Shown piece after piece: positions 9,241-45,574 of a stretch of DNA of 64,000 nucleotides. The stretch's first letter is position 1, and each line of letters opens with the position of its first letter. The stretch lies in assembly GCF_057098645.1 (NCBI RefSeq), contig NZ_CM169472.1, one strand, 5' to 3'. The translations under genes were made by a program, and so were the position numbers. The notes beneath the pieces were generated by a model, which made no database searches, was not told the origin of the DNA, and saw nothing but the letters and a program-made list of their open reading frames with translations.

Positions 9241-9279
9241 AATATGGCTACGTGATAATTAACTTTTGATGCACTCCGC

Positions 9280-9801: not shown

Positions 9802-13162
<3,361 letters not shown>

Positions 13163-13206
13163 TGTGTTAACGCCCGGCTTGCCGGGCTTTTAGCTGGAAT
13201 GTGATT

Positions 13207-27203: not shown

Positions 27204-27625
27204 ACTGTTATATGGCGAATGACAGCAAGGGGCATTTTGTTACGGCGAAAGAAGCAGCGAAGCACAACCGCCGGGACGTTTTGTGCTGTGTGTCCTGTGG
27301 ATGCCCGTTAACACTTCAGCGGGGCAATGACGGACAACAACCGTGGTTTGAACATGACCAGATGACTGTCGCTGAGAAAATCCTGCTGCGATGCACCTGG
27401 CTTGACCCGGCAGAGAAAGAGGCCCGTCGTTTGCATCTGCAGGGTATGACAGTTCTGGATTATACGGTGAAGGTGAGAAAGTGGTTTTGTGTGATGTGTG
27501 ACGAAGATTATGAAGGAGAAAAGTGCTGCCCGCGTTGTGGTACCGGGGTATACAGCAGGGCGTGGGGGCGGCAGGATGTGCCGTCGGAAGATGCCAGGGC
27601 TGATAATCCGTTACAGAGGTTGTAA
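27191..27625 (+). CDS. Double zinc-ribbon protein with CxxC...PWFEH motif, paralog 2 (overlaps paralog 1 by 13 bp)
   Basis: 144 aa from the ATG at 27191 (RBS gggagg); LCCVSCGCPLTLQRGNDGQQPWFEHDQ and WFCVMCDEDYEGEKCCPRCGTG; same motif order as paralog 1. Confidence 0.6.
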   Translation: MRILNCYMANDSKGHFVTAKEAAKHNRRDVLCCVSCGCPLTLQRGNDGQQPWFEHDQMTVAEKILLRCTWLDPAEKEARRLHLQGMTVLDYTVKVRKWFCVMCDEDYEGEKCCPRCGTGVYSRAWGRQDVPSEDARADNPLQRL

Positions 27626-29012
27626 TGGTTGCCTCTGGCGCAGTTTGCGGTGATGCCGTTCCCGGGAATGGATTGCCAGTGCGGGGACTGTGGAGCTTAA
27701 TTCCGGTGTTGGTGGCCTTTCCGTTGATTTTGAGCCAACAGCCCTCCTGTGACTGACAGGCTGCCTCGTCATTCCATACGTATCTTCAGGTGAACAGATG
27801 CATGTCTGAGCGTACTCACGCAGCCGGCCCGGCAACCGCGGTGGTACTACGCTGGCTGCGAGAAAATACAGAAAGCACCAGAATACGCTCTCCTGTTGCT
27901 GATCAATCAGGATCTCATGCACCTACCGGGATCTAGGGCTAGAACTGATGAAACCGATTCGCACCTGGCTGAGTTAATGCTACAGGCCAGGGCATCACTA
28001 CCCCCTGACGAGCACTGTACTGTGGTATGCAGTTACAGGGGGCGTGTGCAGCCACACCTGAAAGCAGTGAGTCGTTCACGGCATTCAAAAACACGTGCCT
28101 TTCGTTCGCCGTTCCTGTGATGGCCGGCATCATTTGCTAAGCCGTTACCGACGTTATTCCCTCCGGGACACGCCTCTGGTTGAGGCTTTGCCCGGAGCAA
28201 TCGAATGAAAATAAGTTAAGTCACCGAAAGGGAGGATGTAGTCAACCGGGGGAACAGTAATAAGCCGTCGTGCTTTTATCGTACAAGTGTGTTGCGTTTT
28301 GCACCGAAAATACGATAGAGGTCGTTTATGGATTCCGCAGGGAGTGCTGATTATTATTCACTGGCAGCAGACAGCGATGTGTGTGCAGGCATTCAGGGGG
28401 ATGTTGTCAGCAGAAGGGTGCGTATAGCAGATTGTTGTTATACATGGCGTATGAAGTATTACCAGTCATGCGGAGTAGTGTGGTGAGGGGCTGTATGAGA
28501 AATCGCCACCTTCTTGTCAGAGAGGGAACGCTACCATGAAAGTCAAAAGCGATAACGCAGACCGGTACGATCGGTAGGTAAAACTGTAGCGGTGTGCTGC
28601 CGCCGAGGTCAGAATAATCTGCGCGTTTTTACGCCAGCGCCACCGACGAACAGCAGGAGATTGAGGGGAATTTGGCGGCGATAAAGACGTAGAAGAGAAA
28701 AACGGGCAATTTGCCGCATGCCCACAGAATCAGTGAGATCGTTAGCGACAGCAAAATGATCGGCAGCCAGCGGCGGCCTGCAATATCGGGATGAAGGAGA
28801 TCCTACGATATCGATGCTGCACCTGATATGTACGATCAGTAAATAGAGTACGAAACAGCAAACACGACGATAATAACGCTGGCAGCGGTGCCTGTCAGGC
28901 AAACGCCCACACGCAATAAAATAAATCAACCATCGCAGGGCCGTGATCATCCGCATACACCGCTGATGACGCGTCTAAAAACGCGTCAATATGACTTCCC
29001 CGGAACATTACC

Positions 29013-30254
29013 TCATTTCAGGGTATGGAGAATTTTTAACATCGAGTTATCTATGGTCTGTTTGACTTTTTCGTAATAGATCGGTTCAGATAATGACGAA
29101 TCCCAGGTATGAATATCGTTCTTATTAAAAGGAATGCATTTCATGGCTACTGCCTTTAACTGTTTCCCTTTTTGCTCATACTCATTGATATCATTAATGG
29201 TAAATTTCAAACTCTCTTTTCTTGCTTCTGTTATTTCAGTTGGGCATACCAGCTTTATATCTCCTAAGGTAAATGTACTGACCCCGGTGATGAAAAATCT
29301 CTCGGGGATTTCTGTATAGTGCCGAGTATTCCAGATTAAGCCATTAAACATACTATGAGAATGAGTTTTATTTTCGATATAATACTGATGCGTTCTCCAG
29401 TCACTAATGCCTGAGAGACTCATTACCATATTAATGATCATATTTGGGATAGGGCGATACCACATACTGAATACAGTAATTACAACTGGTATGCATATTA
29501 AAACAACTATGAATCCAGTGAATTTATCACCATTTCTGCGCTCATTAAGATGTATGGCACCAGGCAGAATGCCAATAGTAACAATAGCTGCTGTTAAGGC
29601 AAGGAGCATTAGCATTTCAACCAAATCACTTGTCTCCTCACTAAAATCAAGTTGGGTAAGCAGAAATAACATAGGTAATATTTGAACGATCCCGGGAGTC
29701 ATAAATTGCAAGGGTAAAAAACATAACAATCCTGGTTTTCTTGGTAATTTCTCATAGTTATCAGATTTATGCCAACTAAATCTCTTTGTTTTAAATAGAT
29801 TAAAATAGGATACAAAATAACTAAAAGCAAGCATCAATACAAAACCGGTGATACTTATGGAATAACCATTCCATCCATAAAGATAGTAAATATAGTAGCC
29901 AACAATTATACTACAGCATATAAACAAGCTATTTAGATAACAAACAGTGGAAATTCGATGTGGTATGCTTGGATAATTTTTGAAATTATCTTCATGTAAT
30001 GTGTAAATGAGGATTAGAATAAAAGAGGAAATGAAAATTACTAAGCTAAACCCAGAAAACGATACTATTATAAAAACAAAAATGATACCTATGGCTGAAC
30101 TGAGGCTTACAGTATCAAAGAAAATATCTAATCTATCTATGTTTGACAGATAGAACCATATAACAGCCATTGTGCATCCAGTAATAAATGTAGATGAGGT
30201 TATTACTGAAATAATGAATTTTTTATTCAACAGCTTTATGACAGATTTATTCAT
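29013..30254 (-). CDS. AT-rich orphan gene: multi-pass membrane protein (about 8 TM) with a roughly 150 aa C-terminal soluble domain
   Basis: 413 aa ORF with strongly A/T-biased codons, unlike the surrounding DNA; hydrophobic helices through about aa 260; no recognisable catalytic motif. Confidence 0.65.
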   Translation of the reverse strand: MNKSVIKLLNKKFIISVITSSTFITGCTMAVIWFYLSNIDRLDIFFDTVSLSSAIGIIFVFIIVSFSGFSLVIFISSFILILIYTLHEDNFKNYPSIPHRISTVCYLNSLFICCSIIVGYYIYYLYGWNGYSISITGFVLMLAFSYFVSYFNLFKTKRFSWHKSDNYEKLPRKPGLLCFLPLQFMTPGIVQILPMLFLLTQLDFSEETSDLVEMLMLLALTAAIVTIGILPGAIHLNERRNGDKFTGFIVVLICIPVVITVFSMWYRPIPNMIINMVMSLSGISDWRTHQYYIENKTHSHSMFNGLIWNTRHYTEIPERFFITGVSTFTLGDIKLVCPTEITEARKESLKFTINDINEYEQKGKQLKAVAMKCIPFNKNDIHTWDSSLSEPIYYEKVKQTIDNSMLKILHTLK

Positions 30255-30884
30255 AATCCGAATTCCATACCTGATAAAATTCGTATTGTAGTGAGGACCG
30301 ATTTTTTGAGCAACTTATAACCATCGCTTAAAGCTACTTGCTACCATACATGCCGTTATCCCGAACCATAAAGCGCTTGGCAGTAACACCAACATCACAG
30401 ACAGATACTGCGGTTGCGCCAAATAAAAGAATGGCGGATAAGGTCGGCGGATTGCAACGTGATGCTGTGCTGTAGGATGACTTCTGCGGTCTCGTCCAGC
30501 GCCAGCCACTCCTGGCGGATTTTGTGTGGGGGCATGGTGTGTTCCTTTTTGTGTTGTTGGTTGCGTATAGTGCTTGTTGATGATGAAAACCGGTGTGAGA
30601 TATTTTTGCCAAAACAACTAACACTGATCAGTGTAGGTAACGAGCTTTTCAGACATAATATGGTGATGATTTACACTGGAAAAACAGGACGTAACACTGA
30701 ATAGCTCTGGAGACGATTTGCTTGAAGTGGCGTGCTATTTGTTGAAAGAAGAATTTCTGATGATACCTTATTTTAAAGGAGGCTAAAGGGAGAGGAGAGA
30801 GCCCTGTTGAAATCAACAGGACTTAATAGCTCCTCTCCGAAGGGCAAGGAGATCACCCGTGCGCCTGGTTAGGTGAAGAAGTAC

Positions 30885-32078
30885 TCAGCGTGGTTGCAGA
30901 CAGTTATCTTCTTTCCAGCCGTACAGCCACTCCATGCCGCGATAAAACTCTGCCTGCGATTTCCCTTTCCACAGCAGGTTACGAACCTGGCGTTCTACTC
31001 CCGCGGCGTGATAAACCCGTCCCATCTCACGGGTCGACCAGACAATACGCGCGGTGCGCGGAATACGTACCGACTCATACAGCGCAAAGGCTTGCGCCGC
31101 ATCACCCTCACACTGCGCCAGCGCCTTACCCAGCGTTACCGCGTCTTCCAGCGCCATACAGGCACCTTGCGCCATATATTGCGCCACTGGATGGGCTGCA
31201 TCGCCCACCAGCGTAATGCGGTTAGTGCCCCATTTCGCGACTGGTTCACGGTCGGCAGTTGACCAGCGTCGCCATGAAGTCGGTTTATCCAGCATCTGGC
31301 GCGGACGCGGGTGAATCCCCTCAAAGTAAGAGAGCACTTCCTCTTTACTGCCATCCTTCACGCCCCACTCTTCCTGCTGGCGGCTGTGGAATGTCACCAC
31401 CAGGTTATACTGCGTGCCGCCGCGCAAAGGGTAATGCACCAGGTGACAGTGCGGCCCCGCCCACAGTACCGGTGCGTTAATGCGCAAATCTTCCGGCATA
31501 TCGGCACAATCGATAACCGCACGGTAGACAACATGTCCGGTGACACGCGGCGCATCGCCCAATAAGCTCTGGCGCACCACTGACTTCACGCCGTCACAGC
31601 CAATCAGAATATCGCCGGTCCAGCTATTGCCGCGATCGTCAAACACGGTGACATCGTCTTCCGTCTCGCGAATATCCACGACGTTGGTGGAGGTGTGATA
31701 TTCCACGTCCGGATGCGTCAGTACCGCTTCCCACACCGAGGCGTGAATATCAACCCGGTGGATCACCGCGTAAGGACCGCCGAAATGGTCACGAAAGGCC
31801 TGCCCGGTTTCAATGCGCACCACTTCTTCGGCGTTCACCGCATCCATCATGGTAATGTGATCGGTAAACACCGCGCGCTGGCGGGCAACTTCGCCGACGC
31901 CGAGGCTGTCCAGCGCCGAAAACGCATTTGGCCCCAACTGGATGCCCGCGCCAATCTCACCGATCTCATGCGCCTTTTCCAGCAGCACCACTTTGATCCC
32001 CAGGCGGGCCAGTGACAATGCAGTTGCCGCACCGCCGATCCCGCCTCCCACAATTACTGCGCGTGTCACTTTCGTCAT
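30885..32078 (-). CDS. FAD-dependent aromatic monooxygenase, 3-hydroxybenzoate 6-hydroxylase-like (MhbM-like)
   Basis: 397 aa; N-terminal GGGIGG dinucleotide fold; DG and GD motifs of flavin hydroxylases; last gene of a gentisate-pathway operon. Confidence 0.8.
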   Translation of the reverse strand: MTKVTRAVIVGGGIGGAATALSLARLGIKVVLLEKAHEIGEIGAGIQLGPNAFSALDSLGVGEVARQRAVFTDHITMMDAVNAEEVVRIETGQAFRDHFGGPYAVIHRVDIHASVWEAVLTHPDVEYHTSTNVVDIRETEDDVTVFDDRGNSWTGDILIGCDGVKSVVRQSLLGDAPRVTGHVVYRAVIDCADMPEDLRINAPVLWAGPHCHLVHYPLRGGTQYNLVVTFHSRQQEEWGVKDGSKEEVLSYFEGIHPRPRQMLDKPTSWRRWSTADREPVAKWGTNRITLVGDAAHPVAQYMAQGACMALEDAVTLGKALAQCEGDAAQAFALYESVRIPRTARIVWSTREMGRVYHAAGVERQVRNLLWKGKSQAEFYRGMEWLYGWKEDNCLQPR

Positions 32079-32092
32079 TATAGTTCTCCTGG

Positions 32093-32740
32093 TCAGGCTG
32101 AAATTTTATCTTGTTGATTTTCTGGCGCTGCGGCAATGAACGCTGGCAGCTGTGTGCAGGCGTCGTACACCGCTTTGCAGCGTGGATACCCGCTCAAATC
32201 GCAGTTCATGCGTAGCGCGTTTGCCCACTGCGGGACAAGGCAGCAATCTGCCAGCGTCGGCGTCTCGCCCACACAAAATTGCCCCGACTGGTTCTGGCGC
32301 AACAGTTGTTCCACCGCGCTTAACCCTTGCTGGATCCAGTGCGCATACCAACGTTTTTTTTCTTCTTCACTGACGTTCAGTTCTTCGGTCAGGTAGCGCA
32401 GCACGCGCAAGTTATTTAATGGATGAATATCACAAGCGATGGCATAGACAATTTCCAGCACCTTGTTGCGGGCCGGTTCTTCCTGCGGCACCAGCGGAAC
32501 TTGCGGGTAGTGCCTCTCCAGCCAGTCAATAATCGCCAGCGATTGTCCGAGTGATTGGCCCTCGTCAGTCAGCAGCGTCGGCACCAGCCCGACCGGATTC
32601 ATCCGCCGATAGGCCAGTTCATTTTGCTGACCAATACGGATATTCACCCCTTCGGTCTGGTAATTAATGCCTTTCAGCGCCAGCGCAATGCGTACCCGGT
32701 ACGACGCTGAACTATTAAAAAAACTGTACAGCTTCATCAT
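32093..32740 (-). CDS. Glutathione-dependent maleylpyruvate isomerase (GST zeta-like; MhbI-like)
   Basis: 215 aa; GST N-terminal thioredoxin-like fold MKLYSFFNSSASYRVRIALALKGI... Confidence 0.8.
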   Translation of the reverse strand: MMKLYSFFNSSASYRVRIALALKGINYQTEGVNIRIGQQNELAYRRMNPVGLVPTLLTDEGQSLGQSLAIIDWLERHYPQVPLVPQEEPARNKVLEIVYAIACDIHPLNNLRVLRYLTEELNVSEEEKKRWYAHWIQQGLSAVEQLLRQNQSGQFCVGETPTLADCCLVPQWANALRMNCDLSGYPRCKAVYDACTQLPAFIAAAPENQQDKISA

Positions 32741-32745
32741 GCACC

Positions 32746-33447
32746 TCAGACAATCTTCACCGCGATAGGCGTTAAGCCCTCGACGTTGCCTGTGATCACA
32801 TCACCTTTCACTACCGGGCCAACCCCTTCCGGCGTACCGGTGAAGATCAGATCGCCCGGTTGCAGCTCAAAGAAGCCTGACAGATAGCTGATGGTTTCAT
32901 TCACCGACCAGATGAGATGGCGAATATCGCTGCGCTGATGATCTTCGCCGTTAACCTGTAACCAGATTGGCGCATTATCAATACCGCCGATATCGCGGGC
33001 TTTGTGCAGCGGCGCGATGGGCGCTGAGAGATCAAACGCTTTACCGATTTCCCACGGGCGGCCCATCTGGCGCATTTCCATTTGACGGTCACGCCGAGTC
33101 ATATCAAGACCCGTGGCATAACCCCAGACATATTCATGGGCGTGTTCCAGCGGGATATCGCTGCCTTTTTTACCAATCGCCACTACCAGTTCAATTTCGT
33201 AATGATAGTTATCGGTCTGCGCCGGATATGGCAGCGCCAGCGTTTCGCCAGCGGCGACCGGAATAACGGCATCTGCTGGTTTGCAGAAGAAGAAGGGTGG
33301 TTCACGATCCGGATCAAAGCCCATTTCGCGGGCGTGGGCGGCATAGTTACGCCCGACGCAGTAAACGCGACGCACGGGGAATTGTTTATCACTGCCAACA
33401 ACCGGTACGGTAACGGGCGCTTGTGGTTCGAATACATATTGAGTCAT
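32746..33447 (-). CDS. Fumarylpyruvate hydrolase (FAH family; MhbH-like)
   Basis: 233 aa fumarylacetoacetate-hydrolase-family protein. Confidence 0.8.
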
Positions 33448-33462
33448 TTTCTCTCTCCCAAA

Positions 33463-34491
33463 TTAATAACGCGCTTCGCGGAAAAGCCCCAGGGCTTCTT
33501 GTACCGGTCTGTCCGAAAAACTGAATAAAACGGTATCTTGCGTAGTCTGGAATGACACGCCGTGCCAGGTCGGCACCACAAAGATATCTTTTGCACTAAA
33601 GGTGAAGATTTCATTGCCGATGGTGACTTGTCCGCTACCTTCCACTACATGGTAGATAGTGCTGTCAGTGGTGCGCGCCACGCGGGAGGAGAACCCTTTC
33701 GGTAGCAGTTGCAGGAAAGCGCCCATCGACGGCATCGGATAGCCGCCGGTGACCGGGTTGACGTAGCGCATTTTGTAGCCATCCCATTCGTCGGCATCGC
33801 CCATGCGGGTTAAATCGTGCAGCACTTCGCGGCTGCGGTCATAACGATAGTTAAAGATCGGCGAGGAGTTCCCCGTCTGATGGCGCAGCGGCAACATATT
33901 GGCAGCGTAACGCGGCAGGTAATCGCCCTCTTTACGCGTTACCGGTTGTTGATCTTCCGGGTAATCTTCGGCAAAACCGCAGCCCAGAGTGTTCACTAAT
34001 GGCAGATCCAACCCATCGAGCCAGATAACCGGTTCGTCGCCAGGGTTGCCGTGATCGTGCCAGCGCCACTGCGGGGTCAGGATAAAATCGCCCTCATTCA
34101 TTGGCGTGCGTTCGCCGTCAACGGCGGTAAATGCCCCTTTGCCTTCAACAATAAAACGCAGCGCCGACTGGTTATGACGATGACTCGGTGCCACTTCGCC
34201 CGGCATGATCAGTTGCAAACCGGCATATAAAGTCGCGGTGATGGAAGACTGCCCTCGCAGCGCCGGGTTTTCCAGTACCAGCACGCGGCGCACCGCCTCT
34301 TTCGCGCCAATCAGGCTGCCGCTCTCCAGCAGCAGCGGGCGGATCTCCTGATAATTCCAGTACGCTGGCGCACAGTTAGCGTTGGGCGTTTTCGGCACCA
34401 GATGGTGCAGTGACTCCCACAGCGGGGTCAGGTTTTGCCCGGAAATATGCTGATAAAATTGTTCACGGCTATTTTGATTGTTATCAGTCAT
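33463..34491 (-). CDS. Gentisate 1,2-dioxygenase (bicupin; MhbD-like)
   Basis: 342 aa; cupin His motifs (...[14 protein letters not shown]..., ...WRWHDHGN...). Confidence 0.8.
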
Positions 34492-34502
34492 TGGGATGCT
34501 CC

Positions 34503-35861
34503 TTATTCGTTCACAACACCTGCGTGAGGCAGTGAGTCAGGGATAGAGGTCGACTGGCGAACCACGGTGATCAACAGGGTTAACATCACCGCACTGATCG
34601 CCGCAGGCACAGCGATAATGAAAAACAGGGTGTCGAAAGAGAAATTCATCGCCATCATCACGCCGCCAGACAGCGAGCCAACAATCGCGCCGCAGCGGCC
34701 CACGGCGTTTGACCAGCTCACGCCCGTGGCGCGACTTTGTGTTGGATAAAGTGTTGCGGTCAGCGCATTCAGCCCCACCTGCGATCCGCTGATGCCAATG
34801 CCGGTGCCGAAAATCGCCAGCGCCATCAGCCATAATCCATCCTGGCTTAAGCCAATCATCACGATGCATATAGCGCCTGTGGCATAGCTCAGCGCCAGTA
34901 CGCGGAAAGGATTGAACTTATCCATCAGCACGCCCAGCGCCAGCGCGCCCAACGTACCGCCAATCTGGAACGCGGCGGTAACCCAGGAGGCATGTTGCAG
35001 GTCGATGCCGCGATGGTTGAGCAGCGTTGGCATCCAGCTTGAGAGCAGGTAAATAATCAGCAAGCTCATAAAGAACACCACCCACAGCATCAACGTGATG
35101 GGTAACTGACGCCCCATAAACAGTTGACGAATGCTGCCTTTTGTAACGGAGGCTGATTCAATGAGATAAAACTGGGTATCGACATAACGCTCGCGGGTGA
35201 TGGCGCTGACGGTTTTCGCAATCACCGCCTGGGGTAGCTGGCGGCGCACTTGCCAGCGTGGCGATTCCGGCAGAACCACCAGCAGTGCAACAAACAGCAT
35301 CAGCGGTAATACGCCACCCAACACCAGGATCCCGTGCCAGCCAATCACCGGCACCAGCTGCGCGCTGACAATCCCGCCAACCGCCGAACCCAGGGTAAAG
35401 CCGCAAAACATCAGCGTCACCAGCGCGCCGCGGCGGCGGGCAGGCAGATATTCCGAGGTCATGGTGATGGTGTTCGGCATCGCGCCGCCCAGACCCAAGC
35501 CGGTGAGAAAGCGCAGGAAGACCAGAGTTTGCAGATCCGGAGAGAAAGCTGAGGCGAGGCTTAACGCGCCAAACAAAAAGACGCACAGCTCAATCACCCG
35601 CTTGCGACCAAAGCGATCGGACAACGGGCCACAAAGCAGTGCGCCTGCGGTTAACCCCAGCAGACCCGCGCCAAAAAGCGGGGCGAGATCGCCTGCGGTG
35701 AGTTGCCAGTGAGTGCGAATATCAGGGGCGATAAATCCGATAGCCGCGGTGTCAAAACCATCGAGCATTACCACCAGAAAACAGCAGATGATAACGCGCC
35801 ACTGCATCTTGCCGACCGGAGCAGCATCGATAAGTGCTTGTAGATCACGTCGTTGAGTCAT
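34503..35861 (-). CDS. MFS aromatic-acid transporter (3-hydroxybenzoate transporter MhbT-like)
   Basis: 452 aa, 12-TM MFS; first gene of the operon, divergent from a LysR regulator. Confidence 0.8.
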
Positions 35862-35987
35862 AGTAAATGCCTCAGTGCAGGTAAGGTAGATGTTTCTTTT
35901 GTTTTGTATATGTTGCGATATTGTGATTAAAGAGATGAAATGTACAATGGCATTTCGGGCAGAGAGATAACCTGGAGGTTATGGTAA

Positions 35988-36896
35988 ATGGCGAACTGGG
36001 CGCAAAAATTAAAACTACATCACCTTGAAATGCTGGTGGCGTTGGGTGAACAGGGCAATCTGACCCATGTCGCACGAATGATGAATATCACCCAACCTGC
36101 GCTTTCGAAATGGTTGTCACAACTCGAAGATGAGATTGGAATCACACTTTTTGAGCGGCACAGCAAAGGATTACGTCCGACTGAAGGCGGCAAATTGTTA
36201 TTGCAACATGCCCAACGGTTAATCAATGACATGGAGCGATCGCAACATGAACTGGCCCGTTTTAAACAAGGTGGACTGGTCGGCAGTCTGAAAATTGGCT
36301 GTTCTCCCGTCGCCACTGACTGCGTATCCCAGGCGATTTTGCATTTGCTTACGAAGATGCCAACTCTACACCTGAATATCGAAGAGAAGGTGATGACCCC
36401 ATTGCTGCAAGATCTGTTGGCAGGTTCTGTCGACGTGGTCGTTGGGCGAATTGGCGGTCGCGCCTTGCAACTGCCACTGAATTATCAGGTGCTGTACACC
36501 GAGCCAGTATGCTTTGTCGCCAGCCCTGAGCACCCACTGGCGAAATACGCCACCCTCAGTTGGAATGATCTTGCCAACTGGCGCTGGATCGTCTGGCCGA
36601 CGGGTACCCCCATTCGCATTAGTATTGATAATGCGCTGGTAGACCACGGCGTAATGCTGCCAGAAAACACGATTGAGTCGGCGTCGATGAACGTCAGTAC
36701 CAACCTGTTACAAAGCAGCGATATGATCTCTATTTTGTCATTACGCCTGGCGCAACGTTATGCCAGCCAGGGACAACTGGTGATACTCAACCTGCCAAAG
36801 ATAGAACAGAAAGGCAGCGTCGGTGTGTTCTGGCGCAATAACGAAACGCCTTCTTATGCTTTAAGTCAGTTTCTGCACTTTTTACAGCAGAATTAG
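35988..36896 (+). CDS. LysR-family transcriptional regulator (MhbR-like)
   Basis: 302 aa; N-terminal HTH (...LTHVARMMNITQPALSKWLSQLEDEIG...); divergent from the catabolic operon. Confidence 0.8.
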   Translation: MANWAQKLKLHHLEMLVALGEQGNLTHVARMMNITQPALSKWLSQLEDEIGITLFERHSKGLRPTEGGKLLLQHAQRLINDMERSQHELARFKQGGLVGSLKIGCSPVATDCVSQAILHLLTKMPTLHLNIEEKVMTPLLQDLLAGSVDVVVGRIGGRALQLPLNYQVLYTEPVCFVASPEHPLAKYATLSWNDLANWRWIVWPTGTPIRISIDNALVDHGVMLPENTIESASMNVSTNLLQSSDMISILSLRLAQRYASQGQLVILNLPKIEQKGSVGVFWRNNETPSYALSQFLHFLQQN

Positions 36897-37205
36897 TGTG
36901 CTGAACTGGGCATTCGCACGATGTTACTTCCCTGTAATTCAACGATGCGTAATTTTTCGGGGAATCGTGCACTGTGATAAGGCGTGATCTTTCATGGGGT
37001 GAAAATCCCACCAGGTGACTGTCGTTCCAGCCGGTAGCAGTCAAAGCAGTCGTGTGGGTAACAAAGCGGCTGATGTATTTGATGAAGAAGCTGTAGGTGT
37101 TTCAGTGAGTATACAGGTCATAATGTGAGTGAATCTGAGCAGGCCTCGAAAGAACCAATTGGAAGGACAACCCATTAGGAATTCCCAGAAAACAAGACAG
37201 GCATA

Positions 37206-37905
37206 GTGAGATGTGATCTAATTGATTGTGCTAGCAATTTCAAGGATATCACCACTATGCCTGCACGTTCATTATGCCAAAAATTCCTTAAAAACATACT
37301 GGCCACTTTGCATTTCTACCATCAAAAATCACTGATTGACGCAACAAATGCTGTAATAAATGGCGCTTCCCTCACGCTTAGCAGCATCGGGCGTCATTTA
37401 ACCAGACAGCATTAGTTAAAAACAAGATAAAGCGGGTGGATTGACCGTTGGGGAATTCTCAACTGAAAAATGATCTTCCCACCATTTTTCAGTTGGTTAC
37501 TCAAAAAAATACGCTGAGAATGTTCGTGTTGTTGTACGCCTTCGCCAGCAGTGGCAGGATGTTCAGGAGGAGTGTCGGCAGGCAGAGGTCGGATCAGGAG
37601 AGCGGCTGCGTAATGCCCTGCTGAATGTGGATTATACCACCAGTTTTGAACTGCCTTTTCGTCTGCTTTTAACCCGCACGTCACAGCTGATTGCTGTGCT
37701 TTGGGAAGAATGGGATATCAGCCAGAAAAATGTGGTGTTTAACGATAAACGCTTTGGTTGCGTGTATAGCCTGAAGGCCAGTCTTTCCGGCGTGCGGATA
37801 CATTCCGGTATCATCTGTCTCACCGTATTCGCCGGATGGTTGGGAATGAAATACATCATCGCCTTGGCAGCAGATTGCCCGGAAAGTGAAAGCGCTCCGT
37901 GAATG
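37206..37905 (+). pseudogene. IS4-family (IS10-like) transposase remnant, frameshifted and 3'-truncated
   Basis: Fragments ...SLTLSSIGRHLTRQH*, ...VKNKIKRVD*, ...IAVLWEEWDISQKN... in different frames resemble the IS10 transposase N-terminal region (TLTLTELGRNLPTKA..., NIKRIDRLLGN..., IVLVDWSDIREQKR as I recall it). Confidence 0.45.
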
Positions 37906-38082
37906 ACTTAAGTATGCGCTAGAGGAGGGATTACTGGTGACCGCACTGGACGGTCTGTTCTGGTCTGGTAGTCAGCGTATTGCGGAAGATATTCTGTGTC
38001 GTTACGGGGAAGTCATCTTCACAGGGATCTTCAGTCAGTTAGTATTACCGACATTCATTCACCAACTTACCGGAGATAATCG

Positions 38083-38412
38083 ATGTCAAAACCCCGATGG
38101 ACCATTGAACAGAAAAGGCAGCACGTTGCTGCCTGGCGCGCCAGTGGTCTTACACGTCAGCAATACTGTGAACTCAACGATATTCCCTTCACATCACTTC
38201 GCGAATGGCCGCAGGATGTCGCAAAAGCTGAACGCCGGGCAAATGAACCGACCGTTCTTCCCGTTCATATTGCGCCACCACTGCATGCTGATGTACCACA
38301 GCCCGTCACGAATGAGCCAGTCACGCTCTTCCTTCCCGGCGGAGTACGGATGTGCTGTCAGCCGTCACAACTTACCGATGTCTTCAGGGCGCTCAAATAT
38401 GCTCAGTCCTGA
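38083..38412 (+). CDS. IS66-family accessory protein TnpA (Orf1)
   Basis: 109 aa MSKPRWTIEQKRQHVAAWRASGLTRQQYCELNDIPFTSLREW... Confidence 0.75.
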   Translation: MSKPRWTIEQKRQHVAAWRASGLTRQQYCELNDIPFTSLREWPQDVAKAERRANEPTVLPVHIAPPLHADVPQPVTNEPVTLFLPGGVRMCCQPSQLTDVFRALKYAQS

Positions 38413-38791
38413 TAATGTCTTCATCGCGATTAAACCTGTTGACATGCGCCGGGGCATCGACACACTGACGCAGTATATACAGGATGAACTCCGGTCGACA
38501 TGGCATGAGGGAGCCGCCTTCGTCTTTGTTAACAAAGACCGTTCGCGTATCAAAGTTCTCCGGTGGGATAAACACGGGGTGTGGTTGTGTACCCGCCGTC
38601 TTCACAAAGGCAGCTTCCGCTGGCCACGTGCAAATGATGCTGCCTGGCACCTCACTCCCGACGAGTTTAACTGGCTGATTGCCGGTGTTGACTGGCAGCA
38701 GGTTAAGGGACATGGCCTGACGAAATGGGTCTGGCAAAATGAACCTGAACTGCGCCCTGAAAACACGCAAAACACACTGCTAACTCACTGA
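38399..38791 (+). CDS. IS66-family TnpB (IS66 Orf2-like)
   Basis: About 130 aa ...FIAIKPVDMRRGIDTLTQYIQDELRSTWHEGAAFVFVNKDRSRIKVLRWDKHGVWLCTRRLHKGSFRWP...; start overlaps the TnpA stop. Confidence 0.75.
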   Translation: MLSPDNVFIAIKPVDMRRGIDTLTQYIQDELRSTWHEGAAFVFVNKDRSRIKVLRWDKHGVWLCTRRLHKGSFRWPRANDAAWHLTPDEFNWLIAGVDWQQVKGHGLTKWVWQNEPELRPENTQNTLLTH

Positions 38792-38797
38792 AAAATA

Positions 38798-39830
38798 ATG
38801 AATATTCGTATCCGGAGTGGTATGCTCCCCTGTATGGATATCTCCGCTCTCAACACCACGAATGACATCGAAAAACTGCGTGCTATGGCACTTGCCATGG
38901 TACAAAAAGTCATGTCGGAGAATGCCGAAAAAGAGCGGGAATTACTGGAGAAAAGCCGGCGCATCCAGCTTCTGGAAGAAATGCTGAAACTGGTTCGTCA
39001 ACAGCGCTTCGGTAAAAAATGTGAAACGCTGGCTGGTATGCAACGCTCCCTGTTCGAAGAGGATGTTGATGTCGATATCGCCGAGCTCACCGCACATCTG
39101 GATAAACTGCTCCCGCAATCCCCTGAAGAAGACGAAAAAGCGTCCCGTTCACGCCCGATACGCAAACCCTTACCGGCTCATCTTCCACGGGTGGAAAAAA
39201 TTATCCAGCCGGACACTGACCATTGCCCTGAATGTGACGAGCCGCTGCACTATATCCGTGATGCGGTGAGTGAAAAGCTGGAGTATATTCCCGCTCACTT
39301 TGTGGTGAACTGTTATGTCCGTCCGCAATACAGTTGTCCCTGTTGCCAGAAGGTGTTCAGCGGTGAAATGCCGGCACATATCCTCCCGAAAAGTGCCGTT
39401 GAGCCATCAGTCATCGCACAGGTGATCATCAATAAATACGGTGAGCACCTGCCTCTGTATCGCCAGCAACAGGTCTTTGCCCGTTCAGATGTCGGACTGC
39501 CCGTCAGTTCGATGGCTGACATGGTTGGCGCGGCAGGGGCCGCATTATCCCCCCTCGCGGCGTTACTCCATCGCGAATTGATAAGCCGTCCGGTGGTGCA
39601 TGCAGATGAGACTACCCTGAAGATCCTGAACACGAAGAAAGGCGGTAAATCCTGCTCCGGTTATCTGTGGGCATACGTCAGTGGAGAAAGGACGGGACCG
39701 TCAGTTGTGTGCTTCGACTGCCGGACCGGACGTAGCCATGAGTATCCTGAAAACTGGCTTCAGGGCTGGGGCGGGACGCTGGTTGTCGACGGACATAAAG
39801 CTTACCGGACTCTGGCAAACAAAGTGCCGG
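38798..39830 (+). pseudogene. IS66-family transposase TnpC, N-terminal about 340 aa only (zinc finger + first two DDE motifs), 3' end replaced
   Basis: RFGKK, PLPAHLPR, CPECDEPL...CPCCQK, HLPLYRQ, VHADETT, GYLWAYV and VVDGHKAY motifs in IS66 order; similarity ends near aa 340; the conserved C-terminal GRKNW region is absent. Confidence 0.7.
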
Positions 39831-40441
39831 AGCTGGCGAATATCATCGGTCATCACGCGGGTATTGATGACAATACAGCGGCAAAAGCCATTGCCCATGC
39901 CATTCTCGGTGGTGTGACAGCAGCCCTTCAGGGCAACAGTGCGGCAGCAGGCGCAATTGGTGCGGGTACTGGTGAAGTGATCTCGTCAGCCATTGCGAAA
40001 AGCCTCTACCCGGACGTAGATCCGTCGAAACTGACAGAAGATCAGAAGCAAACCGTAAGCACGCTGGCAACGCTGTCAGCGGGTATGGCTGGCGGCATTG
40101 CCAGTGGCGATGTGGCTGGCACAGCTGCAGGGGCTGGTGTTGGGAAGAACATTGCTGAGAATAACTTGGTTGGTGGCACAGAGTCCGAGCAGAGCAAAGC
40201 TGCTCAGACGCATGGCGCAGATGTACTTTCCTGTAACGATGCTCCAGGCGGTGAAGCCTGTAAGCGAGGAGAAGCAGTCAATAAAGCGTATGCCGGAGCG
40301 TTGGCCACTGGTAGTGTAGCTCTCTTACCTGGCGGTGCTCAGGCCATGTGGGCTCTTGGCACAGGTGCAAATGCAGGAATTGGTTACATGGTAGATAGTT
40401 CAGTTGATCCTGAAAATGCAATCATTGCAGGATGGGTCTGA
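39831..40441 (+). other. Polymorphic-toxin-like fragment in frame with the truncated tnpC: Gly/Ala-rich pretoxin region with ENN motif (KNIAENN) plus about 90 aa glycine-zipper-like C-terminal piece; stop supplied by the IS629 terminal TGA
   Basis: ...SLYPDVDPSKLTEDQKQTVSTLATLSAGMAGGIASGDVAGTAAGAGVGKNIAENNLVGG... resembles CdiA pretoxin (PT-VENN) regions; the ORF ends exactly at the IS629 boundary (40439-40441). Confidence 0.45.
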
Positions 40442-40480
40442 ACCGCCCCGGGTTTCCTGGAGAGTGTTTTATCTGTGAAC

Positions 40481-41371
40481 TCAGGCTGCCAGATCATCGT
40501 TTCCGATGGAAGCATAATAAGCTTTTTCTGCTTCTGCCGGAGGAGTATGGCCCAGCCTTTCCAGCAATCGTCGATTGTTATACCAGTCCACCCACGTGAG
40601 TGTGGCCAGTTCCACTTCTGCACGGTTTTTCCAGCTCTTACGGTGTATTACCTCCGCTTTGTAAAGACCATTGATGCTCTCCGCCATCGCGTTGTCATAC
40701 GAGTCGCCTGTACTTCCTGTTGATGCCAGTAATCCGGCTTCCTTAAGCCGCTGTGTGTAGGCCAGCGATACATACTGAGAACCTTTATCACTGTGATGGA
40801 CCGTGCCGGACGGTCGACGGGCCCATAACGCCTGCTCCAGTGCATCCAGCACGAATGTCGTCTCCATGGACGATGAGACCCGCCACCCCACAATGTATCC
40901 GGCAAACACATCAATGATGAACGCCACATAGACGAAGCCCTGCCATGTGCTGACGTAAGTAAAATCAGCCACCCACAGCTGGTCAGGTCGTTCTGCCACG
41001 AACTGACGGTTTACGCGGTCGCCTGCGGCAACGGCTTTCCGGCTGATGGTCGTACGGACCTTTTTACCCCGGAGAACACCGGCAAGTCCCATAACCGCCA
41101 TGAGACGTGCCACAGTGCATCTGGCCACTCTGATACCTTCCCGTAACAACTGACGCCAGACTTTACGCACACCGTATACCTTGTGATTTTCATCGTATAC
41201 GCGCTGTATCTCTTTCTTCAGCCAGTCATCGCGCTGCGCACGGGCACTGCGTTTATCCGGATGATGTCGCTGTTGCTGACAGTGGTAATACGTTGACGGG
41301 GCAATATGCAGTTCGCTGCATAGCGGTCCGACCCCGTACTGCTCACGCAGCTTATCCAGCAGTGGCATCAT
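40481..41371 (-). CDS. IS629 OrfB
   Basis: Identical 296 aa translation to 18174-19064. Confidence 0.9.
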
Positions 41372-41694
41372 TTTTTCCAGAGGCGGTCGAACTCCGCCTT
41401 CGCAAAATAAGCGGAAGCCTGGCGAAGGATATCGTTACTGCGGCGCAGTTCACGATTTTCACGCTCCAGCTCTTTCAGACGCTGACGTTCAGCGGTGGTG
41501 AGCCCTCCATCACCGCCCCCGGTATCCCGCTCATGCTGGCGAACCCAGACACGCAGAGTCTCCGGCGTACAGCCAATCTTTGGAGCAATGGAACAAATTG
41601 TCGCCCATTGTGAGTCATATTCGCCCTGACTTTCCAGAACCATACGGACTGCCCGTTGACGGACTTCAGGGGAAAAACGAGTATTTTTAGTCAT
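41368..41694 (-). CDS. IS629 OrfA
   Basis: Identical 108 aa translation to 17851-18177. Confidence 0.9.
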
Positions 41695-41745
41695 CCTGTT
41701 TACCTCTTTCTCAGGAAGTTTAGTCTCCAGGATTCCCGGGGCGGT

Positions 41746-42156
41746 TCAATCAGTGTTTACTTCCCTGGCCTCGCTACCATTGGTATAGCTACTACAGTCT
41801 TCATCACTGCCACGCTCATTCTCACAGACATGTTTCTCGACCTTTCCAAGATATCTGACGCCTTTTCGCGGAATGGTTTTAATTAGAGAACTCGACAAAC
41901 CAGCGATGTCTAATGCCTTTCTAAGCATGTAAATCTGCCCATAATAACTGCTGTCGCTTACCGAACCTTTCTGCTCCCGCCAAACCTCATTGATAATATG
42001 TTGCTTATCGGATTCTCCCTGTAGTAAAAGGAGTAAAAATCGATAGCCGTTTTCAGACAGATTAATTACATTGCCTGTACTGGTGGTGATACGTCGAGAC
42101 GCTGGGTAAAACTTAACTCCCTGCCCTAAAGAAAAATAAAAACGGTCATCGCTCAT
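41746..42156 (-). pseudogene. ToxR/CadC-like winged-helix (OmpR/PhoB-type) transcriptional regulator, N-terminal 136 aa; 3' end truncated by IS629
   Basis: ...NGYRFLLLLLQGESDKQHIINEVWREQKGSVSDSSYYGQIYMLRKALD...IKTIPRKGVRYLG... winged-helix pattern; the stop codon is the IS629 terminal TGA. Confidence 0.55.
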
Positions 42157-43500
42157 AAGTACCGAACCCTGTTTTCTTCTTCACATGACTACTCATTACA
42201 ACTTTGTATGAAGTAAGATGCAAAATCATATTGTTTACATTAAGTTAAGCAATTATACCGTTTAAACAAAGACAATACGTCTCTTTATTTCTCATAAAAC
42301 CCCAATCCCTTACAGGGCTTATTGAAAATTTAAAAATCACAAATTTCTCAATACTAAAAATGAGATCACATAAGAAATCAAAAAACCTTCTCATCTATTT
42401 TAAGTTTTCCCAACGTAAAATAAGAGCTTTTATTAATAACTGAACCACTTTACTGTTCTATTTGTTCAGGTATTGTATTACGGTGTGCTGAGATCCATAG
42501 GTGCATCCCTGTATCCCGCGATGAGACTAAAATAGTCGTGATTTAAGCTCGTATCAGATTCTTAGTGAATACCACATTTGTTATAATTAAGTGAAAAGAT
42601 ACATTGCTGATTTACATTTTTTGGTTTACAAAATGTCATCACTTACAGAGTTATCGCTGACATATACCTTTAATCTCTTAATCCTTTCGTGTTATTGCAA
42701 TACAACCATCCATAAAGCAGGCTATTTTTAGCAGGAAATACTCAGGTGTCAACATTCGAACCCCAACCCTGAAATATTCATATAAATTAATGATTTTTTC
42801 ATTTATTCACACCTAATCAAAGTATTCAAATTCAGATGATTTTTCTGCTCAACAGACACAAACAGGCAATAATACTCTCCAAAGCGAACAATATTTGGCA
42901 TTACGATTTAATGCTTCATAATCACCAAATCATTTAACTATAAATTTTCTTATTTTTAACGAAATGGTTGGTGTTTTTTTGGAATTAAAAACATACATAA
43001 TATTAACATCTACCGACATTTCACTTTCCGAAAGACGAATGATTTCGAATCCTCATCTACGTTCTCCCATCCCAAATATCTTTATTAATAGGCAGTACGA
43101 ACACTGTTATAGCAAGATTACCTTATTAACCTAATGGAATCCTTTATGTAACAAGTGAAAATAAATTCCTTAAAATTGATTCTCAGCAAATCTTAAAAGT
43201 TCTCATTATTCTGCAAAATCAGCTTTGCGAATAATCTTATGTTTTTGGGAATTTTGATCTGCTCATTGCTCTCGTGAAAAATACAAACAAGAGAAAAAAC
43301 GCCATTCGTCATGAAAAGAACAGACGTAGCAATGTAATAACATACTAAAATTGATCTCATGAAAGTGGGTGCTTTATAACCAGCACAGAAGCTCAGACGT
43401 ATAAATATTAAACAATTTGCATTGTAAAACGGAGACTATGTATTAAGAAGCCAATCGTAAAAACGGTTCCCTGGCGAGATAAACGACAAACAAATGGAAA

Positions 43501-43527
43501 GCCGGATGATATTTACCTTCATCCGGC
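43501..43527 (-). terminator. Hairpin downstream of glcA (terminator candidate)
   Basis: gccggatga...tcatccggc inverted repeat immediately 3' of the glcA stop; weak T-tract. Confidence 0.35.
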
Positions 43528-43536
43528 ATTATTGAC

Positions 43537-45219
43537 TTACGAAACTAACATCCCGGTAAACACATACGCCTGCAACAGCGTGATAATGCCGATAACGCTG
43601 GCAAAAATCAGACTGTGCTTCACGGTGTAGCGGAACAGTTCAGATTCTCGGCCCACCATGCCCGTCGCGGCGCAGGCCACGGCGATAGATTGCGGGGAGA
43701 TCATCTTGCCAGTTACGCCGCCGCTGGTATTTGCTGCCACCAGCAGAGTGTCAGAGACGTTGATTTGCTGCGCCGTGGTCGATTGCAGTGAACCAAACAG
43801 GGCGTTTGAAGAAGTGTCCGAGCCGGTAAGGAATACCCCCAGCCAGCCGAGGAACGGTGAGAAGAACGGGAACATCACGCCTGTACCTGCCAGTACCAGC
43901 GCCAGCGTGGTGGACATGCCGGAATAGTTGGTGACGAAGGCGAACGCCAGCACCATGCCAATCGACAATATCGGCCACTTCAGACTAATTAGCGTTTCGG
44001 CAAAGACGCCAATCCCTTTCTTGATGCCCACGCCGAGGATGAAGATAGAGATAATCGCCGCAATAAAAATAGCGGTGCCGCCAGCCGAGAGGGGGTCGAA
44101 TTTAAACACCGCATCCATTGGCGTTGGTTGGGCGACAATGGGTGCCGCTTTCAACACTTGTTGATGCAAATGAGGGATCTGGAAATTAATCACCAGTGAA
44201 TAAAACACGCCGCCCGGAGCAAATAACGCTTTAAACGGCTTCATGGTCCAGATGGTGACCAGCACCGTTAAGATTAAAAACGGTGACCACGCTCGAATGA
44301 TTTGCCCCAGACTATATTCTGAAGGCACTGGACCGCCAGAAGATGGCTTATTTACCACCATCGCACCTGCGGATTGTCCCATGCTGATTGCCGTTTCGGT
44401 ATTTTTCGGCCGCCAGACTTTAAGGAATAAAGCGAGTGAGACGATACTCACCAGCGCCGAAGTAATATCCGGCAGTTCCGGACCAATATAGTTAGAGGTA
44501 AAGAACTGAGTGACAGCGAAGCTTCCCCCTGCAGCCAGCGCCGCTGGCCACGTCTCTTTCACCCCTTTCCAGCCGTCCATCATTGCTACCAGCCAGAACG
44601 GCACAAGAACCGACAGGAACGGTAACTGACGTCCTGCCATAGCACCAATGTGGAACGGATCGATTCCCGTTACCTGACCGGCGACCAGAATCGGCACGCC
44701 CAACGCACCAAACGCCACCGGCGCAGTATTGGCAATCAGACACAGCCCCGCCGCGTATAACGGTTTGAAGCCCAGGCCCACCAGCAGCGCACCAGTAATC
44801 GCCACCGGGGCACCAAAGCCAGCCGCCCCTTCCAGCAGCGCGCCAAAGGAGAAACCAATCAGTAACACCTGCAAACGCTGATCGTCAGTGATGGAGATAA
44901 CCGAGCTGCGGATAATATCGAACTGCCCGCTGGCAACGGTTAATTTATAGAGGAACACCGCCGCGACAATAATCCACGCTATTGGCCATAATCCATAAAT
45001 AAAGCCATAGCCCGCAGCAGAAAATGCCATATCAATCGGCATTTTAAAGACGAATATCGCAATCAGGAGAGATAATATAAGGGTTATTGCTCCGGCAACA
45101 TGTCCTTTCAGACGTAATACCGCGAGTGCAACGAAGAAGAATATTATCGGGATCAGGGCGACCAGAGCGGATAGCCCCAGTCCTCCCATCGGCATATACA
45201 TTTGGGTCCAGGTAACCAT
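43537..45219 (-). CDS. glcA: Glycolate/lactate permease GlcA
   Basis: 560 aa LctP-family permease; position downstream of glcB. Confidence 0.9.
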
Positions 45220-45574
45220 ATTGTTCAGTCTCTTATTATCTTTATATGCTTGATATACTTAAGGTTGTAATAAGCAAAAGAGGACTGAACTGTAAAATAT
45301 AGGCGTTATACTTTACAGCAACAGTACGCCGCTAACGCAATTGCTACCTCTGGCATAACAAGTATATCGGGTAAGGGTTTCTGTTCCGCACACGCAGGCG
45401 CAGAGTATCGTTAAGATATCCATATTGTTGTTTTAGGCCCGCTAGTAATGCGCTACGGGTATTTAATATTGTTAAACCCTGATAATCGCTCCGGTTATTT
45501 CCGGGATAAATGTACTACCGCAGTTACTATCATAGCCCCGACAATAAAACTTGCCGGGGCTTTTTTTGACGCTA

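Follow-up and report, generated by a model that had tools for sequence, protein, structure and literature searches.

Orphan cdiA-CT/cdiI modules, as described for EC93 and EC869 (o1-o11; Poole et al. 2011, PMC3150448), are known to be disrupted by IS elements and normally lack translation start signals, and the o10 toxin of EC869 has a two-helix immunity protein (PMC7858069). In O145:H28 and other EHEC, IS629 predominates among the IS elements and is tied to deletions (PMC3893438, PMC9943667). Pieces of both kinds are found in the 64-kb window, i.e. the whole stretch of DNA analyzed here, within an E. coli genomic island, in an ordinary accumulation of defunct mobile-element fragments and disrupted cargo genes. 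The gene order of the island is tRNA-Phe, integrase, fec operon, gentisate cluster, LysR and then the scar region, in which a group II intron remnant, an IS4-family remnant, an ECs1377-family fragment, an IS66-family part, a cdiA fragment and IS629 follow each other from left to right (36967-41748). We take this region, with a probability of about 0.88, to be scar tissue without function, close to the right-hand end of an island integrated at pheV and produced by the insertions and deletions proposed below.

A sequence-only reading had described the interval as nested IS decay, with an IS4-like remnant, the 5' part of an IS66-family element and IS629 abutting, and each truncating the previous one. 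As an overall description nested IS decay is fair, and domain scans, tblastn and IS629 identity place all three families in that order. No two of them abut, however, as the ECs1377-family fragment (37536-37996) and the cdiA fragment (39833-40438) intervene and make up about one third of the 3.2-kb interval (461 and 606 bp, respectively). The features are as follows.

36967-37174, plus strand: group II intron remnant, part of the 5' RNA domains (Rfam RF02003, DNA homology)
37175-37535, plus strand, both boundaries approximate to about 5-25 bp: 5' remnant of an IS4-family element (ISEc60-like according to PGAP), left end and first ~85-100 transposase codons (tblastn, left-end DNA alignment)
37536-37996, plus strand: internal, frameshifted 461-bp fragment of an ECs1377-family "DNA-binding protein" gene (NF052300, DNA homology)
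37996-39832, plus strand: left 1,837 bp of an ISEc49-like IS66-family element (NF047593, NF033819, NF033517, Pfam, DNA identity)
38083-38412, plus strand: tnpA (NF047593)
38399-38791, plus strand: tnpB (NF033819, PF05717)
38798 onwards, plus strand: tnpC, codons 1-345 of 533 (NF033517; Pfam LZ_Tnp_IS66, zf-IS66 and DDE_Tnp_IS66)
38798-40441, plus strand: chimeric ORF of 547 aa, TnpC residues 1-345 followed by CdiA pre-toxin/CT (ORF list, domain scan)
39826-39832, plus strand: 7-bp microhomology GCCGGAG at the tnpC::cdiA junction (three-way alignment of the window, an ISEc49-like copy and cdiA of strain R6)
39833-40438, plus strand: orphan cdiA 3' fragment of 606 bp with the end of DUF637, the PT-VENN pre-toxin domain and the first 91 of 220 toxin (CT) residues (Pfam, DNA identity)
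40439-41748, minus strand: complete IS629 (IS3 family), 1,310 bp (100% identity to annotated IS629)
40481-41371, minus strand: IS629 orfB (NF033516, rve)
41297-41413: ALIL frameshift (-1) pseudoknot in IS629 (RF01497, 120 bits)
41368-41694, minus strand: IS629 orfA (NF033516)
41749-42156, minus strand: truncated gene for a winged-helix regulator (ToxR/CadC-like), 5' 408 nt with 136 of 201 codons (Pfam Trans_reg_C)

Pieces and joins left of the cdiA fragment

The IS4-family remnant starts about 30 bp to the left of position 37206, where its start had been placed. Pfam and NCBIfam scans of the ORFs in this region found no transposase domain, and direct tblastn was needed to see the homology. With the intact IS4-family transposase of strain ZJ3920 as query, residues 1-48 align at 63% identity on 37257-37400, and the alignment resumes from residue 52 in another frame with an internal stop (E 9e-22); the IS4-like fragments are thus backed by a transposase alignment. 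The DNA alignment adds the left-end motif AGGAATTCCCAG, common to the remnant and the intact element. Homology ends before ~37535, without a DDE domain or right end, and PGAP annotates the counterparts in relatives as pseudogenes. The piece is what is left of a family member and not a functional element.

Directly to its left lies a probable group II intron remnant (36967-37174) that the earlier reading overlooked. Model RF02003 (group-II-D1D4-4) matches 36993-37128 with 69.9 bits against a gathering score of 49, which covers a sub-region of D1-D4 only, and it is the sole RNA family found between 36700 and 38100 at E <= 1, with no D5/D6 model. Plasmids of Pantoea, Xenorhabdus and Buttiauxella share 75% DNA identity with 36967-37174, and the homologous piece in the Xenorhabdus plasmid is situated ~220 bp upstream of ltrA. 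No reverse-transcriptase/maturase ORF was found between 36897 and 37175.

The ECs1377-family fragment, between the IS4 and IS66 pieces, corresponds to nt 63-525 of a 624-nt homolog. It matches NF052300 with an E-value of 2e-23 (profile positions 37-92 of 190), and its DNA is 84-91% identical to intact paralogs; identity to L009:6816-7278 is 87%. Where it meets the IS4 remnant, interior stands against interior, which is a deletion junction, placed only within ~25 bp because the IS4 remnant is degenerate. At its other side, the end of homology at 37996 coincides with the left end of the IS66-family element.

In the latter, tnpA, tnpB and the start of tnpC are present in the family's usual order (38083-39832), and its recognition as an IS66 5' part is thereby confirmed. 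The DNA is 97.8-98.1% identical to the ISEc49-like copies of UTME-7 and CFT073. As these two have 2,714-2,717 bp in common, the complete element would be ~2.71 kb; its ends were set from the shared limits of the two independent copies, and the name was taken from PGAP. A repeat search, a 3-mismatch pattern search and an end-to-end local alignment gave no convincing pair of terminal inverted repeats. The DDE_Tnp_IS66 match is incomplete (profile positions 2-143 of 284), and the copy in the window is immobile because the right ~880 bp are missing, a loss that also leaves no second flank to compare for the 8-bp target-site duplication of the family.

The element had been thought to run up to IS629, but ends at 39832 instead. 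A reading of 39833-40438 as the 3' half of the IS66 tnpC was rejected, since this stretch contains PT-VENN and DUF637 domains and is 96-99% identical to cdiA. Codon 345 of 533 in tnpC joins the interior of cdiA in frame at GCCGGAG, and the breakpoints agree with the other DNA comparisons. This join, inside both genes, is likewise a deletion junction.

True IS-end junctions are found at two joins only, namely where the IS66 left end cuts the ECs1377-family gene and where IS629 cuts cdiA; the IS4 left end also cuts the intron remnant. The claim that each element truncates the previous one holds for IS629, which cuts its left neighbor at a terminus, and fails for the other two of the three joins, as the IS4 and IS66 pieces were truncated by interior-to-interior deletions and not by the next IS. 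That three IS elements inserted successively into each other, each truncating its predecessor, so that the interval is all IS sequence, is consequently very unlikely: the order of the families and the IS629 terminus agree with it, yet 461 bp of ECs1377-family and 606 bp of cdiA sequence separate the elements, the truncation points of IS4 and IS66 are not at any IS terminus, and an insertion keeps both halves of its target, yet neither IS4 nor IS66 is followed by its other half. The idea that the insertions explain the fragmentary cargo survives in part. An IS has cut the ECs1377-family gene, cdiA and the winged-helix regulator on at least one side each, but two of the cuts are IS-independent deletions, and the largest loss is a deletion beside IS629, not an insertion. 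Transposition is impossible for anything in 36967-40438, because every element lacks a complete transposase and one end, and so is intoxication, since what remains of the toxin is incomplete and lacks a secretion domain.

The cdiA fragment and the chimeric ORF

The cdiA fragment, an orphan piece of a contact-dependent toxin that the earlier reading had taken for transposase, lies between the IS66-family part and IS629. It carries the tail of PF04830 and PF04829 (E 1.5e-12), with the motif IAENN at 40151-40165, and its DNA is 96-99% identical to annotated cdiA genes; the full-length version occurs in relatives. Its upstream neighbor is the IS66-family part and not a cdiI gene; it is not downstream of a cdiBAI cluster. 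The 64-kb window has no cdiB, no full-length cdiA and no ORF longer than 774 aa. The stop codon of the chimeric ORF is a TGA of the IS629 terminus. Uninterrupted, the chimera measures 664 or 676 aa in relatives and is found in many genomes and on ~350 contigs. In relatives without this IS629, the cdiA fragment within the 664-aa ORF is followed by a 72-aa hydrophobic ORF, whose start overlaps the stop of the fusion ORF, an o11 fragment, and CdiI-o11 (the PGAP name; Pfam CdiI, E 1.5e-51). A complete CT with a cognate cdiI is absent from the window, the 72-aa ORF and the CdiI-o11 of relatives both missing.

The CT is probably of the EC869 o10 type, judging from its position upstream of o11 and the features described in PMC7858069. 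The o10 toxin is membrane-depolarizing and paired with a two-helix immunity protein, a description that the glycine-rich CT and the small membrane ORF in relatives fit.

The fusion could also be a selected, expressed (exapted) gene, in which the IS66 operon gives the orphan membrane toxin a promoter and start codon, and which together with the 72-aa immunity protein would form an addiction/immunity cassette stabilizing the island, or an expressed reservoir for toxin swapping; IS629 would then have inactivated the fusion in the window's clone. If true, the intact 664/676-aa ORF, annotated everywhere as "IS66 family transposase", would be an intracellular toxin/immunity pair. We consider this highly doubtful. 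The fusion is indeed in frame and its 664/676-aa ORF uninterrupted on the ~350 contigs, a small hydrophobic ORF with overlapping stop and start follows as for the o10 two-helix immunity protein (PMC7858069), and a borrowed start would supply what orphans normally lack (PMC3150448). In-frame joining is, however, expected by chance in one case out of three, the fused protein lacks any secretion domain, and the frame has been broken independently in several lineages (by IS629 at 39760, 39792 and 40438, and by an IS630 remnant at 40202). Moreover, the copies of the fusion are ~100% identical and therefore give no evidence for purifying selection as opposed to recency. RefSeq names WP_000354992.1 and its cluster (~350 contigs) "IS66 family transposase", a label that conceals a chimera of transposase and toxin.

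The IS629 junction and its distribution among genomes

IS629 itself was correctly recognized, being 1,310 bp long and 100% identical to the annotated element, and the boundary at 40438 was exact. The termini carry the repeats TGAACCGCCCCGGG(A/T)(A/T)(A/T)CCTGGAGA, and the flanks are GTC|IS|ATC, i.e. without a target-site duplication; the simple insertion in strain DLI.6n has a 3-bp duplication at 39758-39760. As the element in the window lacks the duplication and joins the cdiA fragment to a truncated regulator gene, its position is a deletion or rearrangement breakpoint. The missing 3 bp indicate rearrangement after insertion and not that the element falls outside IS629. The regulator's C-terminal membrane anchor is lost at this junction, and the truncated gene adjoins glcA. 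In O145:H28 RM12761 an intact 201-aa regulator gene is found beside the Flp pilus cluster and glcA.

A second, 100% identical and inverted IS629 copy is situated at 17797-19106. The flanks CAT, TTT, GTC and ATC and their complements, checked for a simple insertion, a composite transposon and an inversion, show no pairing. In the inversion model, homologous inversion between 17797-19106 and 40439-41748 would have flipped the 21.3-kb segment with nothing deleted. Besides the identity and orientation of the two copies, the L001/L002-type strains agree with it, as their fec operon is oppositely oriented and found on the side of cdiA, with the sequence beside the first IS629 (17156-17796) downstream of the cdi orphans, and O145:H28 is documented to have large inversions with mobile elements at their borders (PMC3893438). 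Nevertheless, no combination of the four flanks pairs as reverse-complement target duplications; RM12761 and Z1323HEC0399 keep the LysR-to-cdiA orientation relative to tRNA-Phe without this IS629 pair; and inversion alone leaves the missing toxin 3' end, immunity gene and regulator 3' end unexplained. This makes it an unlikely origin, and we prefer a loss of DNA next to IS629. The intact element and its inverted twin can still act as substrates in later rearrangements.

In the complete genomes that match best, O103:H2, O145, ML35 and an echidna isolate among them, all of the sequence left of IS629 agrees with the window at 100% identity. The block of intron, IS4 and ECs1377-family pieces was found in 85-91 out of 5,426 genomes and the tnpC::cdiA junction in 24. 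No single match among the 5,426 complete genomes spans the cdiA fragment, IS629 and the regulator gene, and the nearest hits carry IS629 elsewhere. The exact truncated 547-aa protein is present on 12 draft contigs, one of which is 100% identical to 35798-40564 of the window; assemblies with the 547/535-aa product include GCA_032290885.1 and GCA_032490095.1. On these distributions, everything left of IS629 is an inherited scar and the IS629 junction alone is clone-specific, so that the junction at 40438/40439 is a marker of the clone.

Other strains have IS junctions at five other positions of the homologous stretch:

37250: IS629 junction, RM12761
39760: IS629 junction with a 3-bp target duplication, DLI.6n
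39792: IS629 junction, RM9872
40202: junction of an IS630 remnant, Z1323HEC0399
further downstream, in the o11 module: IS629 junction, MS 196-1 and others

At the population level the five positions bear out the proposed local insertion hotspot; tolerance of insertions in dead DNA accounts for this pattern as well as target preference does. Relatives vary in what lies between the cdiA fragment and the regulator gene: L001/L002 have the fec side there, L005/L012 have nleBE, and RM12761 has the Flp cluster.

Proposed history and comparison with known systems

The analysis established the identities and limits of the pieces, the junction types, the missing target duplication and the genome distribution. 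From these we infer the order of the older events and the mechanism of the IS629-linked loss. An IS4-family element would have entered the group II intron remnant, and an ISEc49-like IS66-family element an ECs1377-family cargo gene. Two IS-independent deletions would then have followed: one brought the interior of IS4 up against the 5' region of the ECs1377-family gene, and the other fused tnpC at codon 345 with the pre-toxin region of an orphan cdiA-CT module, in frame and at the 7-bp microhomology. No genome was found with the intermediate forms, i.e. an intact ISEc49 in the ECs1377-family gene at the site, or cdiA continuing upstream. The composite was presumably inherited by or transferred to many lineages unchanged. 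In the window's clone, IS629 may have entered the cdiA-CT fragment 91 codons past the VENN motif, and an associated deletion or rearrangement may have removed the remainder of the toxin, the small membrane immunity gene and all up to regulator codon 136. By comparison with relatives, the loss probably also took the o11 toxin/immunity module and the Flp pilus cluster. It could have come about through deletion adjacent to the element, through IS629-IS629 recombination, or through a deletion promoted by IEE.

The biology is ordinary and already known, and touches no open question. It adds one more case of pheV/pheU islands being eroded in connection with IS629 in O145-like E. coli, and one more of orphan cdiA-CT modules being disrupted by IS elements, both already described. 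On the corrected map of the island end, cargo debris, with an orphan CDI toxin fragment in it, accounts for one third of what had been taken for IS sequence.

Each piece can be set against its closest described system. The intron remnant resembles the ltrA-containing group II intron on the plasmid of Xenorhabdus sp. TH1, with a full-length match to the D1-D4 sub-model and 75% DNA identity upstream of ltrA, but only ~208 bp are left, without a reverse transcriptase or a D5/D6 match. With the intact IS4-family relative in ZJ3920 (between tyrT and narI) the window shares the left-end motif, and over about the first 48 residues the transposases are 63% identical; what is left is ~360 bp of ~1.3 kb, with a frameshift and a stop and without DDE domain and right end, and the DNA identity to the nearest intact IS4-family element found is only 68%. 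The IS66-family part has the tnpA-tnpB-tnpC order of the ISEc49-like elements of CFT073 and UTME-7 and 98% DNA identity over the left 1,837 bp, and its TnpA has the same accession as that of CFT073. Compared to the complete element it lacks the right ~880 bp, and with them the latter half of the DDE domain, 188 codons at the end of tnpC and the right end. IS629 equals that of enterohemorrhagic E. coli in length (1,310 bp), 100% identity, orfA/orfB with the ALIL pseudoknot, and terminal repeats, and differs from an ordinary copy in lacking the 3-bp duplication and in linking two non-adjacent sequences.

Lastly, the cdiA fragment is like the orphan cdiA-CT/cdiI modules of EC93 and EC869 in being an IS-disrupted cdiA 3' fragment which retains sequence upstream of VENN and has no TPS/N-terminal region, and in relatives it is found immediately upstream of an o11-type fragment and CdiI-o11. 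The copy in the window departs from these modules in having no cdiB, full-length cdiA or cdiI, with only 91 of 220 CT residues left, and in its in-frame fusion to the IS66 tnpC, from which it therefore borrows its start codon.

Composition of the region

A genomic island integrated at pheV makes up the window; its E. coli host is a close relative of O145:H28 strains, one of which, RM12761, is collinear with the window at 99.6-100% identity over positions 1-17552, 21141-22053, 24693-37250 and 41749-52501. Seven pieces lie side by side in and around 37206-40438, with a winged-helix regulator gene and glcA to the right of that interval.

Features of the island and of the remnant region
6585-6660, tRNA-Phe
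6858-8120, integrase
9280-16825, fecIRABCDE
30885-35861, gentisate/3-hydroxybenzoate cluster
35988-36896, LysR regulator gene
36967-37174, group II intron 5' RNA-domain remnant (Rfam RF02003), flanked by the LysR gene and the left end of the IS4-like piece
~37175-37535, IS4-family 5' remnant
37536-37996, ECs1377-family gene fragment (NCBIfam NF052300, E 2e-23)
37996-39832, IS66-family element, left part
38083-38412, tnpA, intact
38399-38791, tnpB, intact
38798 (start), tnpC, stopping at codon 345 of 533
39833-40438, cdiA 3' fragment: DUF637 tail, PT-VENN and 91 toxin residues
40439-41748, minus strand, IS629, 1,310 bp, 100% identity to annotated IS629 OrfA/OrfB elements
41749-42156, truncated ToxR/CadC-like winged-helix regulator gene, first 136 of 201 codons, beside glcA

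The sequence-only reading had seen here three IS families abutting within 3.2 kb, each cutting short the one before. This is confirmed in part: the families and the nested IS decay hold, but the elements do not abut, as the ECs1377 and cdiA fragments intervene, nor does each one truncate its predecessor. The IS4-like remnant gave no match in the HMM libraries; it is nevertheless real, and a transposase alignment, whose absence would have counted against the reading, does exist: residues 1-48 of an intact IS4-family transposase (strain ZJ3920) align to 37257-37400 at 63% identity (tblastn, E 9e-22), the alignment going on in another frame and crossing an internal stop. The left-end motif AGGAAT(T/C)CCCAG is common to the remnant and the intact IS4-family element, and PGAP labels the remnant in relatives as an 'IS4-like element ISEc60 family transposase' pseudogene. 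The ECs1377 fragment, with 84-91% DNA identity to intact paralogues, aligns with nt 63-525 of a homologue 624 nt long and is therefore cut at both ends. The IS66-family element is 98% identical over exactly 1,837 bp to copies in CFT073 (ISEc49 family according to PGAP) and UTME-7, which have 2,714-2,717 bp in common with each other; thus, ~68% of it is present, and TnpC ends in the middle of its DDE domain (profile positions 2-143 of 284).

Four features had been missed, namely the ECs1377-family fragment, an orphan CDI toxin fragment, the role of IS629 as a breakpoint and the group II intron remnant. The last matches RF02003 (group-II-D1D4-4) end to end at 36993-37128, scoring 69.9 bits where the gathering score is 49. 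Its nearest relatives, at 75% identity over 36967-37174, are found on plasmids of Pantoea, Xenorhabdus and Buttiauxella, the Xenorhabdus homologue being situated ~220 bp upstream of ltrA, which encodes a group II intron reverse transcriptase. Related genomes carry PGAP annotation for most of the region, and every component and process in it is already known; mildly new is that the intron remnant carries no annotation in any of the 91 E. coli genomes that harbor it.

The tnpC::cdiA junction

The tnpC reading frame runs on into the DUF637 tail, the PT-VENN pre-toxin domain (E 1.5e-12; motif IAENN at 40151-40165) and the 91 toxin residues; from 39823/39826 onward, DNA identity to annotated cdiA genes is 96-99%. 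In a three-way alignment, cdiA homology starts at 39826 and IS66 homology stops at 39832, with GCCGGAG common to both. Such a join is typical of a microhomology-mediated deletion, not of an IS terminus.

The stretch 36000-40438 is 100% identical in 2015C-3163, ML35, several O103:H2 strains and others, all without IS629 at 40438, i.e. the comparison with strains lacking an insertion that had been proposed as a check. There, the chimeric ORF encodes 664 aa, or 676 when counted from the native start of tnpC, and its stop overlaps the start of a hydrophobic ORF of 72 aa, a hypothetical protein in the annotation and probably its immunity gene; both lie within L001:8835-11044 in 2015C-3163 and also occur in relatives. 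The uninterrupted chimera is named 'IS66 family transposase' in databases (WP_000354992.1, on about 350 contigs of the protein collection). Also mildly new, then, is a microhomology fusion that gave an orphan toxin an ORF with a start codon, mislabelled as a transposase. A functional fusion is improbable, because the copies are too alike to show selection and several lineages broke it independently.

Out of 5,426 complete genomes, 85-91 carry the intron, IS4 and ECs1377 block and 24 the tnpC::cdiA junction. The old junctions are all common to relatives and the sequence is nearly invariant; they are therefore older than the spread of the island segment.

IS629 as a breakpoint

The IS629 at 40439-41748 has both ORFs intact and an ALIL frameshift pseudoknot (120 bits). 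Both ORFs that it cuts terminate on the TGA of its terminus TGAACC, and the regulator has lost its C-terminal membrane anchor. RM12761 (L004:4341-9408) retains an intact regulator gene and, ahead of it, a Flp/Tad type IVb pilus cluster that the window lacks. No single match spanning the cdiA fragment, IS629 and the regulator gene was found among the 5,426 complete genomes, and in the nearest of these IS629 sits elsewhere. Twelve draft contigs, all breaking inside IS629, encode exactly the truncated protein, and one of them matches window 35798-40564 at 100% identity.

Simple insertion of IS629 duplicates 3 bp of the target, as seen in DLI.6n. The flanks here, GTC and ATC, show none, and the two sides are not neighbors in any relative compared. 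A second copy, 100% identical and inverted, cuts a YfjI-family gene at 17797-19106 and likewise lacks a duplication (CAT and TTT); between the two lie 21.3 kb including the gentisate catabolic cluster. The four flanks do not pair in any of the ways that a single inversion or composite transposition of the 23.9-kb unit would predict. Because of the missing duplication, the non-neighboring sides and the unpaired flanks, an IS629-associated deletion is favored, which would have made the junction, possibly after further events. Missing are the rest of the toxin, its immunity gene and one third of the regulator gene at its 3' end. Depending on the ancestor, the o11 module is missing too, along with the nleBE region in one case and the Flp pilus cluster in the other.

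Elsewhere in the island, 17553-21140 (3.6 kb: fec-side sequence, the second IS629 and the YfjI fragment) is absent in RM12761 (L010), where 17552 is joined straight to 21141 with no IS at the join, i.e. another independent deletion. An IS21-family element at 22054-24692 (IstA 22175-23821, IstB 23595-24593), absent from the same site in RM12761 and Z1323HEC0399, is a strain- or clone-specific insertion.

Recurrent insertion and known CDI systems

IS junctions in other lineages (window positions)
37250, IS629, RM12761
39760, IS629, DLI.6n, clean 3-bp duplication
39792, IS629, RM9872
40202, IS630 remnant, Z1323HEC0399
Further downstream, in the o11 module, IS629, MS 196-1 and others

Given these independent junctions, recurrent IS arrival is real at the population level, and the insertion hotspot previously proposed is to that extent borne out, the interpretation as a whole being partly supported; target preference or tolerance of insertions in dead DNA may lie behind it. 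For EHEC, in which IS629 predominates among the IS elements, deletions associated with it are well documented (PMC3893438, PMC9943667).

An IS66-family 3' remnant or ISEc49-like copy is found just downstream of a cdiA-cdiI pair in strain R6 (L009:9851-13806) and UTME-7 (L008), which suggests a recurrent association of this element with CDI loci.

In strains without this IS629, the 72-aa ORF is followed by a frameshifted endonuclease-toxin fragment, CdiI-o11, IS3-family debris and a reversed fec operon. This gene order is that of the orphan cdiA-CT/cdiI arrays defined by Poole et al. (PMC3150448), in whose account IS elements often disrupt such modules. By position and described features, i.e. 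a location directly upstream of the o11 module, a glycine-rich CT and a small membrane ORF after it, the cdiA-CT fragment appears to agree with EC869 o10, a membrane-depolarising toxin with a two-helix immunity protein (PMC7858069).
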